Source: Dictyostelium discoideum (Eukaryota). From it: a stretch of 64,000 bases of DNA. The notes under the pieces were generated by a model that saw only the letters and a list, made by a program, of their open reading frames with translations, made no database searches and had not been told where the DNA came from. The DNA lies in contig CM000154.2 in NCBI GenBank assembly GCA_000004695.1, forward strand, positions 2,400,001 through 2,464,000, in the 5' to 3' direction. Positions 2,296 through 45,479 of this stretch are shown here, piece by piece. The position numbers and the translations under genes were made by a program. Numbering within the stretch: the first letter of the stretch is position 1; the number at the start of each line of letters is the position of its first letter.

Positions 2296-2420
2296 ACCCT
2301 AATAACTAAATAAAAAAAAAAAATAATAATAATAAAATTAAAAATAGATAATTTTAAAATTTTTTGTTGTATAATAGATGTTTTTAAAAAAAAAATTAAA
2401 AACTTAATAAAAAAAAAAAA

Positions 2421-2551
2421 ATGTTTAATAATAATAATAATGATAAAATTAATAATACAATGATGTCAAATAATCCAAGCGGCCAAATTATTAATTTAGA
2501 ATCAATTGATTGTAATAGTAATTTAAGTAATACTACTAGTATTAAAGATTC

Positions 2552-42522: not shown

Positions 42523-42789
42523 TATATTATATCATAATAATTATAATAACCCCTTTTAAAAAAAATAAAATTATTATTTCTTAAATTTAATTTTTTTTTT
42601 TTTTATTTTTTAAATTATTTTTATTTTATTTATATTTTATTATTTTTTTTTTTAAAAGACTCATTTTCACCCTATTAGTATTAGTACAAAAATTCCATTA
42701 TAATATAAATTAAATGACCCCTTTTAAATAAAGAAAAATTAGTATTTCTTAAATTTAATTTTTTTATTTTTTTTTTTTAAATTTTTTTT

Positions 42790-43450
42790 ATTTTTTTTTT
42801 ATTATGTGAAATACAGCAAGGTGGTAATATGGAGAATTACCAAATAAAATTATGAATATCATTATTCAGTAATTTTAGCTTTTTTCTTGAGGTTCAGAAT
42901 CTTTTGTTTGATTCAGCTAACATTTTGATTCTTCTCTGATTTAAGGGAATAAATGATGTAGGCTAGTGATTCTGTATCAAATTCTTTCATTAAGTCTAGA
43001 ATTCACCACCTAATTATATTCTATTGAATTGATAAATGGNNNNNNNNNNNNNNNNNNNNNNNNNNNNNNNNNNNNNNNNNNNNNNNNNNNNNNNNNNNNN
43101 NNNNNNNNNNNNNNNNNNNNNNNNNNNNNNNNNNNNNNNCTCGTTCTTGCGTCTATTTTTTGAATGTTATGGACTTTTTAATATTTCATCTTAGCCATTT
43201 ATCAATTCTAACCTTGATGTGTAATGTCATGTCATTAAAGGGTTTGAGGCTTTCTGTCTTGATTCTTTTCGGCTACATTCTCTTTCTTCCTTCAAATTGC
43301 AATCAAAGTAACAAATTGTATCTGTCAAACTTAATTAAGTTGTTTGTTTACCAACTTTGTAATCTTTCAATCCATATTCTAATTTTTACGGTTTAATGCA
43401 ATAGAATATTATTAGCTTTGCCAATTGATTTCTATCAAAAAACGATACAA
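42790..43450. mobile_element. Non-coding complex repeat of roughly 65-70% A+T, likely a transposon or LTR-derived fragment, interrupted by an assembly gap
   Basis: The composition and complexity change sharply relative to the flanking poly-A/T intergenic DNA. There is no ORF. It flanks 100 Ns on both sides. Confidence 0.3.
43040..43139. other. Assembly gap (100 N)
   Basis: A run of 100 n characters, the conventional placeholder for a gap of unknown size. Confidence 1.
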
Positions 43451-43880
43451 TTGAATATTAAATCAGATAACATAGTGGAGTCTATTGTTAAATTTTTCTT
43501 GGAAATTGAAAAATCCAATAATCTTGTTAAAACTTTTTGATCATTATTTTCAATTATATAATATATTGGACTTTTTCCATATGAATCTTTCAATTTATAA
43601 AAAAAAAAAAAAAAGTTAGCAACTAAATAAAATTTAAATATTAATAAAAGTACCTACACATTTATTAATTTTTGTGTTCCTTTTTTAGTTTTTATCCCAT
43701 ACAAAAAAAAGGTGAAAAAAAAAATAATTATTATATATTATTTTTAATTCCATTTTGTAAAAAAAATAAAATTATTATTATATAATATTTTTTTATTATT
43801 TTTAAAAAAAAAAAAAAAAAAAATTATTTAAAAAAGTATTAAATATTGTGGATTAAAAAAAAAATTATTAAAAAAAAAAA

Positions 43881-44072
43881 AATAACAATATTGGTGACCA
43901 AAAAAAAAAATCACAATATTGGTGACCAAAAAAAAAAATAATATAAAATCACAGGATTGGTGATCAAAAAAAAAAATTAATAAAAAATCATAGGATTGGT
44001 GATAAAAAAATCACAATATTGGTGGTCAAAAAAAAAATTATATAAAAAAAAAAAAATCACAGGATTGGTGAT
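43881..44072. repeat. Array of 6 spaced copies of a 15-16 bp near-palindrome TCACA(AT/GG)ATTGGTGA, separated by oligo(A)
   Basis: Copies sit at about 43884, 43911, 43948, 43987, 44011 and 44057, in two subtypes (..AATATTGGTGA and ..AGGATTGGTGA). TCACCAATATTGGTGA would be a perfect palindrome. The array lies 70-260 bp upstream of the WD40 gene ATG at 44140. Confidence 0.85.
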
Positions 44073-44139
44073 GAAAAAAAAAAATTATTAAAAAAAAAAA
44101 AAAAAAAAAGTCAATTTCAAAAAAAAACTGCAATGTGAA

Positions 44140-45479
44140 ATGAATAAAGAAGCCAGTAATAATAATAATAGTGCACCAGACCCATATTATATATTAAGAG
44201 GACATAAATTTAATGTAAACTCAGTTTTATTTGATAAAGTCAATCCAAACTTACTGTATTCTGGGTATGAAATTGAAAAAACACACACACATTCATATTT
44301 AAGAAAACAATAAATTTATTTAAAAGGTATCACTAACAAATATAAAAACAAAACAAAAATTATTAACATTAACAATAATAACATTAAAAATAATATTAAT
44401 TATTATTACTATTATTATTATTATTATTTTTATAAAAATAGATCAGGAGATGGTGAATTAAAATTATGGAATATTGAAGAAAAGAAATGTATATCAACAC
44501 AAATAGCACATTCAGAAGGTATTGGAGGTGGTGTATTATCATTACAATGGTTATCAAATGATAATAATAATGAAAATAATAATAATAATGATGAAATTTG
44601 TGGTAATATATTAAGTCAAGGTAGAGATGGAGTTATTAAAATATGGAGTATAATTGATAATTGTACATTTAAAAACACATATAGATTAGAAACCAATTCA
44701 TTATCATTAGGTAAATGTTCAAGTTTATCATCTAATCTACTATCAATATCAGGTAGTGCTATTGATCCAACATCATCAACATCACAAGTTGAAATTTGGG
44801 ATTTAAAGAATAAACAAGTTATAAATAAATTAAAACCAAATAATCAACAATTATTTGAAAAATTAGGTTTACCAATGTCTTTAAAATTATATTATGAAAA
44901 TGAAAATAATGATAATAGCAATCAATCAAATGATCAAATTAGATTATGTACTGGTTATGAAAATGGTGAATTATTAATATGGGATTTAAGAAATACTTCA
45001 ATACCATTAGTATCTTCAAAATTACATAATGAACCAATCTTATCATTTGCATTATCAAATAATTCAACTAAAGGTATATCAGGTTCTGGTGATACAAATA
45101 TTATTGAATTTAATATAAATTATGAATCTGTAAATATTATTATTACAAAAATAAATTTATTATTATTTTTAATATTAATACTAATTTTATGTATATATTA
45201 ATAAAAAAATAGAAACAATTTAATATTACAAAAACTCATAAATTAAATAATGGTGGTATTTCAGAAATTAAAATTAGAAATGATGAAAAAATTTATGCAA
45301 CTGCTGGATGGGATAAAAGAATTAGAATTTTTAATTTTAAAAAGCAAACACCATTAGCAATTTTAAAATATCATACAGAAAGTGTTTATTCAATTGATTT
45401 TAATTCAAATAATATTTTAGCATCAGGTTCAAAAGATTGCAAAATAGCATTATGGGATATTTATACTACAAAGAAATAA
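44140..45479 (+). CDS. WD40-repeat protein. Exons 44140..44264, 44442..45129 and 45213..45479
   Basis: The sequences [39 protein letters not shown] and [12 protein letters not shown] are WD-repeat signatures. A GTATGA donor in phase 2 is followed by the acceptor aaatag at 44440-44441 (..[14 protein letters not shown]). A GTAAAT donor in phase 0 is followed by the acceptor AG at 45211-45212. Confidence 0.7.

Follow-up and report, generated by a model that had tools for sequence, protein, structure and literature searches.

The six-copy array that precedes the start codon of the gnb1l gene in Dictyostelium discoideum AX4 is most probably a degenerate promoter minisatellite, specific to the AX4/NC4 lineage and amplified from one copy of a short box, and we put the probability of this reading at about 0.8. 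As far as the sequences go, comparison of related loci establishes that the copies arose in tandem, that the array is restricted to one lineage and that outgroups lack it; its effect on gnb1l expression is likely to be weak or neutral, at most modulatory. We regard the array as an ordinary promoter tandem-repeat polymorphism and not as a conserved regulatory array: tandem duplication, rather than selection for many sites, accounts for its reiteration, and the orthologous promoters do not need the box.

The window, by which we mean the whole 64-kb stretch of AX4 chromosome 5 that was analysed (G+C content about 20%), carries the array between two divergently oriented genes (Table 1). The splice model of the downstream gene translates cleanly, and its 359-aa product is an exact match to XP_636324.1, ‘guanine nucleotide-binding protein subunit beta-like protein 1’; homologues of this protein are named GNB1L, or DSE1 in plants. 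We take the gene, which the original prediction had called a WD40 gene, to be the GNB1L orthologue, a WD40 protein. GNB1L acts as co-chaperone for kinases of the PI3K-related family, among them TOR and ATM, and gnb1l is a conserved housekeeping gene. Its neighbour encodes a short-chain dehydrogenase (SDR). The array had been assigned to a divergent SDR/WD40 promoter, and it does lie between both genes, but the AX4 spacer is 1.6 kb long and the SDR ATG is 1.36 kb from the array, with a long hairpin element in between. On the SDR side, a ~100-bp stretch from the 5′ end and promoter of SDR (CAT..ACCCCTTTTAAA..TTTCTTAAATTTAATTTTT) is duplicated at ~42526–42633 and ~42706–42803, ~180 bp apart; this duplication is present in 3/3 D. 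discoideum lineages, and the sequence is single in the sister species.

The box, TCACA(AT/GG)ATTGGTGA, recurs in six same-strand copies within positions 43883–44071. We searched for it with TCACANNATTGGTGA in place of the pattern suggested at first, TCACNNATTGGTGA, which is one base short and matches 0/6 copies. At 0–1 mismatch, TCACANNATTGGTGA has six matches in the 64-kb window, all on the plus strand, one at the start of each of units u1 to u6 and every one inside the array. Dinucleotide-preserving shuffles of the window (n = 100, ≤1 mismatch) gave an expectation of 0.09 matches per 64 kb, and 0/100 shuffles reached six. TRF independently detected arrays of period 28, 38/39 and 46 with matches of 85–95%. 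The array is identical in L001 (GCA_054883475.1), a gap-free assembly of the same lineage that differs from the window by 1 mismatch in 13 kb, which rules out an artefact of the AX4 assembly gap close by. The claim of a six-copy box upstream of the WD40 gene is thus borne out, and its finer dimensions had to be corrected: the start-to-start spacing is 28, 38, 39, 23 and 46 bp (27–46 bp had been given), the subtypes follow each other 5′ to 3′ as AT, AT, GG, GG, AT, GG, so that the alternation that had been described is not strict, and 68 nt (70 had been given) separate the end of the last box from the gnb1l ATG.

Table 1. Features of the SDR–gnb1l region in the window, and spacer length and box number at the related loci
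Feature	Position	Strand	Description
Short-chain dehydrogenase DDB_G0289167	41551..42522	-	323 aa, exact AX4 match; divergent neighbour of gnb1l
Hairpin-bearing element	42798..43345	.	Common to three D. discoideum lineages, ~92% identity
AX4-lineage-specific block	43346..43838	+	Non-AT-rich fragment 43346–43614 ending in A16, then AT-rich filler
u0	43839..43882	+	Decayed box TTAAATATTGTGGA + TT + A10 + TTATT + A13; spacer layout as in other units
u1	43883..43910	+	TAACAATATTGGTGA (AT subtype, 1 mismatch) + CC + A11; short unit
u2	43911..43948	+	TCACAATATTGGTGA (AT subtype; same as single box of L002, L003) + CC + A11 + TAATAT + A4
u3	43949..43987	+	TCACAGGATTGGTGA (GG subtype) + TC + A11 + TTAAT + A6
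u4	43988..44010	+	TCATAGGATTGGTGA (GG subtype, 1 mismatch) + T + A7; short unit
u5	44011..44056	+	TCACAATATTGGTGG (AT subtype, 1 mismatch) + TC + A10 + TTATAT + A13
u6	44057..44109	+	TCACAGGATTGGTGA (GG subtype) + TG + A11 + TTATT + A20
Proximal promoter box	44110..44119	+	GTCAATTTCA in AX4, GTGAATTTCA in other isolates; A-run after
ATG-proximal box	44128..44139	+	CTGCAATGTGAA; (T)CACAATGT or (T)CACAATCT in D. cf. discoideum, D. citrinum
gnb1l	44140..45479	+	Exons 44140–44264, 44442–45129, 45213–45479; 359 aa
AX4 lineage (window, L001)			Spacer ~1.6 kb; 6 boxes + 1 decayed
D. discoideum L002			Spacer ~1.6 kb; 1 box, start 122 nt before ATG
D. discoideum L003			Spacer ~1.4 kb; 1 box, start 73 nt before ATG
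D. cf. discoideum L004, L009			Spacers 435, 239 bp; 0 boxes
D. citrinum L007, L008			Spacers 183, 171 bp; 0 boxes
D. firmibasis L005			Spacer 581 bp; 0 boxes
D. purpureum L006			Spacer 321 bp; 0 boxes

All units share one layout, in which the box is followed by 2 nt (CC, CC, TC, T, TC and TG), A10–11, a TTATT/TAATAT/TTAAT piece and a second A-run; the units of 28 and 23 bp stop after the first A-run. Since homology spans box and spacer of whole units, the copies are tandem duplicates and not independently evolved sites. The array reads as a degenerate minisatellite of 23–46-bp units, with head-to-tail arrangement, whole-unit homology and a copy number that differs at the orthologous site, and u0 as a seventh, older, decayed unit. 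The original prediction had taken the reiteration for a series of dimeric transcription-factor sites; this is not supported, given the duplication of whole units, the confinement of the array to the AX4 lineage, the absence of the box from the orthologous promoters of six related assemblies and the mutated arms of the palindrome. Five of the 15 box positions differ among units, from which we infer that the expansion is not a recent laboratory event. The 3′ flank of the u4 box, GATAAAA, agrees with that of the single-copy isolates, and the single box of L003 aligns pairwise to the u6 position. AT-rich minisatellites of 20–50 bp occur in many intergenic regions of the 64-kb window, of which the gnb1l array is the sole intergenic tandem repeat with an information-rich core.

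The orthologous SDR–gnb1l locus was identified in eight other assemblies via protein look-ups. The single box of L002 and L003 is TCACAATATTGGTGA, followed as in AX4 by an A-run, the GTGAATTTCA box and CAATGTGAA-ATG. These two loci are ~97% identical to AX4 in coding DNA and ~90–92% identical in alignable spacer. In the six outgroup spacers (L004–L009) the best match to the box has at least 5 mismatches. Among these assemblies the box is thus found only in D. discoideum sensu stricto, where the AX4 lineage alone carries the array. With D. discoideum represented by three lineages, the polarity of the change, expansion versus contraction, follows from parsimony with the zero-box outgroups. L002 and L003 (GCA_054859355.1 and GCA_054859385.1) are both labelled D. 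discoideum; their GNB1L proteins are ~97% identical, at 353 and 357 aa versus 359 aa, and the spacer identity of ~90–92% to AX4 amounts to a deep divergence under one species name.

The spacer between SDR and gnb1l is structurally hypervariable. The AX4 assembly gap (43040–43139) coincides with the middle of a near-perfect, ~175-nt hairpin, whose two arms measure 74 nt each and show 95% complementarity; the hairpin maps to the window flanks at ~42990–43210, to 5323–5497 in L001, to ~3299–3470 in L002 and to ~3340–3511 in L003. L002 and L003 still form a long hairpin (MFE −98 to −109 kcal/mol), in which differing near-loop sequence still pairs. The hairpin is a candidate miRNA/siRNA locus, or else a small palindromic element, that read mapping to the AX4 reference would miss. 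Rfam gave no match on the spacer of the window and, on the gap-filled spacer, only sub-threshold plant miRNA-precursor matches of the hairpin, which at 73.6 bits versus a gathering score of 140 do not make it a member of such a family. Its arm 13-mers are absent from the supplements of PMC11014262.

Downstream of the hairpin-bearing element, L002 and L003 carry 560–660 bp of unrelated sequence in place of the AX4-lineage-specific block. As both keep the box without the fragment 43346–43614, the box did not arrive with that fragment. The fragment stands between AACTTAAT and AACTAAAT, which may represent an imperfect target-site duplication, and it may itself be a 5′-truncated retroelement or a retro-copied fragment. 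Its short ORFs (the longest 52 aa, on the minus strand) gave nothing significant in Pfam, and ORFs, which reach at most 78 aa, likewise have no significant Pfam match. TRE elements usually target tRNA genes, and there are none in the window or the related loci.

These surroundings bear on a mobile origin, which the original prediction had raised as an alternative in the form of a terminal repeat region. In this view an element inserted between SDR and gnb1l would have left the array as its subterminal repeats or as some other remnant, its boxes being transposase-binding or element-derived sequences. We consider this very improbable. The spacer has indeed lengthened, from ~170–440 bp at the D. 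citrinum and D. cf. discoideum loci to 1.4–1.6 kb in D. discoideum; it holds the long hairpin and, in AX4, the lineage-specific A16-ended fragment together with its possible imperfect target-site duplication, and the box sits at the inner edge of the inserted material. Like the subterminal repeats of DNA transposons of the CACTA/En-Spm type, the array repeats a short box, palindromic in part, at irregular intervals close to inserted DNA. Unlike them, (i) it has no terminal inverted repeats, the only true inverted repeat being the 74-nt-arm hairpin ~700 bp away, and no inverted partner box stands at the other edge; (ii) it is accompanied by no transposase or reverse-transcriptase ORF or Pfam match; (iii) outside this site, neither the 64-kb window nor ~70 kb of related loci contain a further copy of the box, the hairpin element or the fragment; and (iv) the box persists singly in L002 and L003, where unrelated sequence replaces the neighbouring fragment. 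Furthermore, no tRNA gene is nearby, and ordinary oligo(A) spacer forms part of the units. On this local evidence, a transposon terminal repeat is unsupported.

A metagenome scan with a two-box pattern returned 24 contigs, all of them unrelated tandem repeats with 29–62% G+C and no oligo(A) spacers. An unrelated contig of 32% G+C (Ga0116226_10059046, positions 1–420) contains degenerate dispersed repeats, TCACATAATTGGTGACCAAA and CCATAGGATTAGTGATCAAA among them, that resemble the box and its 3′ flank. It illustrates that similar boxes can be dispersed degenerate repeats, a point in favour of a mobile origin; its context is not dictyostelid-like, and the repeats are probably a coincidental family rather than relatives of the box.

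Within the minisatellite, the box itself is unevenly preserved. ATTGGTG is unchanged in the six AX4 boxes and the two boxes of the single-copy isolates, and together with T1, A3 and A5 it makes up the invariant part. All three singleton changes (TAAC in u1, TCAT in u4 and GTGG in u5) fall in the TCAC/GTGA arms and are uncompensated, and the inner CAATATTG palindrome, which the AT subtype has, is lost in the GG subtype. Of the imperfect palindrome described at first, only the 4-bp arms TCAC/GTGA are common to both subtypes, and they are intact in 3/6 copies; neither half-site maintenance nor compensation is seen across the six. Conservation within the box is thus lowest in the palindrome. For any factor that binds the box, ATTGGTG would be a likelier contact than the palindromic arms. 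This heptamer lies about 65–125 nt before the gnb1l ATG in the single-copy isolates and contains ATTGG, the inverted CCAAT pentamer, which is present in 6/6 AX4 boxes and in both single boxes.

NF-Y sites commonly occur in reverse orientation. The box is like a CCAAT/NF-Y element in Y-box orientation in its invariant ATTGG and in its distance of tens of nucleotides to ~120 nt 5′ of the coding start in single-copy isolates; it differs in its flanks, (A/G)(T/G)ATTGGTG(A/G), which fit the metazoan NF-Y consensus poorly, and in that the six orthologous outgroup spacers contain zero CCAAT/ATTGG pentamers. In the AT-rich DNA of the window there are no further box matches at ≤2 mismatches outside the array, and other occurrences of ATTGGTG in the window are all in sequence that reads as coding. 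Literature searches for the box in both orientations and for 8-mers yielded nothing beyond PCR primers and papers on other subjects, and the motif has no record there; those on CCAAT or NF-YA in Dictyostelium returned nothing usable.

Other known sites were compared and set aside. The box does not match the DUSE ([AT]CCCA[CT]AA), GBF G-boxes/CAEs or STAT TTGA repeats. The AT subtype (ACAATATTGG) approximates a CArG/MADS site, CC(A/T)6GG, which the GG subtype destroys; the HD-Zip site CAAT(N)ATTG is spaced differently and likewise resembles the AT subtype alone; and TGATAA, a GATA site, occurs only in u4 and the single-copy isolates.

Considering these features, it is unlikely, although less so than a mobile origin, that the array is a homotypic cluster of transcription-factor sites, bound by a dimer on TCAC-N7-GTGA or by an NF-Y-type complex on ATTGG, whose amplification was selected or is active and raises or re-times gnb1l transcription. 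As in multimerised enhancer or operator boxes, several boxes in the same orientation stand within 190 bp near the start codon. The box is promoter-proximal in the single-copy isolates (Table 1), it is identical across the three D. discoideum lineages with ATTGGTG invariant throughout, and the AT subtype is nearly a palindrome of TCACAAT, the heptamer that adjoins the ATG in D. cf. discoideum and D. citrinum. Vinces and co-workers reportedly found in 2009 that unstable promoter tandem repeats tune expression in yeast (Saccharomyces cerevisiae). Against a functional cluster, the multiplicity of the box is accounted for by whole-unit tandem duplication; the copies are recent duplicates that are not conserved in orthologous promoters, the box being kept within D. 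discoideum sensu stricto only, and no cognate factor is known. The six orthologous promoters lack the box and any CCAAT pentamer, the arms carry uncompensated mutations in 3/6 copies, the inner palindrome is destroyed in the GG subtype, the flanks suit NF-Y poorly, the box occurs in no other promoter of the window, and the motif is without record in the literature searched. What survives of the original promoter-box reading is a possible single box, common to the three D. discoideum lineages at the orthologous place, but not an array of dimeric sites.

The minisatellite reading suggests the following history. A young box would have been born in D. discoideum sensu stricto at the junction between the hypervariable spacer and a conserved core promoter that consists of the GTGAATTTCA box, an A-run and CAATGTGAA-ATG. 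A unit of ~38 bp, comprising the 15-bp G/C-containing box, 2 nt, A10–11, a TTATT-like piece and an A-run, would then have been amplified from one copy to six plus the decayed seventh, most likely by replication slippage, or by unequal exchange, between the oligo(dA) tracts on both sides of the box, with partial duplications producing the 28-bp and 23-bp units. The change of the AT dinucleotide to GG may have had a single origin and been copied thereafter. If a factor binds the box, the array would multiply its site, shift the upstream DNA ~190 bp away and modulate gnb1l transcription without being required for it. [quoted passage not shown]

In its head-to-tail units of 23–46 bp in A/T-rich promoter DNA, the array resembles promoter VNTRs, for instance those of Saccharomyces cerevisiae, and other intergenic repeats of D. 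discoideum; its copy number varies by lineage (6–7 versus 1 versus 0), its homopolymer flanks are a likely slippage substrate, and modulation of expression is possible at gnb1l. It differs from them in that the unit contains an information-rich 15-bp G/C-containing box and not pure A/T filler. This difference is a counterpoint to the minisatellite reading, the box being far more information-rich than the other intergenic tandem repeats of the window. Another is that the box is kept at 15/15 positions between lineages whose spacer is ~8–10% diverged or unalignable; this identity is weakly suggestive of constraint, with which it is compatible, the chance of it being 0.9^15, or ~0.2. A further one is the persistence of a G/C-containing box in six copies despite the A/T bias of mutation in this genome.

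The main outcome is a correction of the original reading; beyond it, the locus is of modest value as a Dictyostelium case in which a short G/C-containing promoter box with oligo(dA) flanks appears to have been born and then amplified, with 0, 1 and 6–7 copies in different lineages, and in which the AX4 reference differs from its wild relatives in the gnb1l promoter. If the box binds a factor, these loci would constitute a natural series for relating site number to the output of a Dictyostelium promoter.

A second box at the gnb1l locus behaves likewise in other lineages. The GTGAATTTCA + A-run box is more widely conserved than the 15-mer, being kept in D. discoideum and in D. cf. discoideum L004, and L009 has only the looser ATTTCAAGTTCA at this position. 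GTGAAT(T/A).. with its A-run is duplicated in tandem, with three copies in L002 (~2400–2480, minus strand) and two in L004 (2927–2975), and the same duplication process has therefore acted on a different box of the same promoter.

The ATG-proximal box touches on the origin of the 15-mer. TCACAAT, the left half of the 15-mer, equals the heptamer that adjoins the ATG in D. cf. discoideum (aTCACAATgt, L009 2478–2490) and in D. citrinum (gTCACAATct, L007 2469–2500). The AT-type box reads TCACAAT + ATTG(G)TGA and looks like an inverted duplication of this heptamer. As a speculation, the TCACAAT half of the 15-mer may derive from the ATG-proximal box. A more far-reaching reading makes the 15-mer a genuine binding site of recent origin for a CCAAT-type or dimeric factor, created by inverted duplication of the ATG-proximal TCACAAT, whose six-fold amplification measurably changes gnb1l expression in NC4/AX4 relative to wild isolates; we hold this to be improbable, and if true, it would mean that natural variation in promoter copy number affects the phenotype of the standard laboratory strain. 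In one of the two D. citrinum assemblies, L007 and not L008, an independent 18-bp perfect palindrome, TGACCTTTGCAAAGGTCA, is joined to the TCACAAT heptamer.
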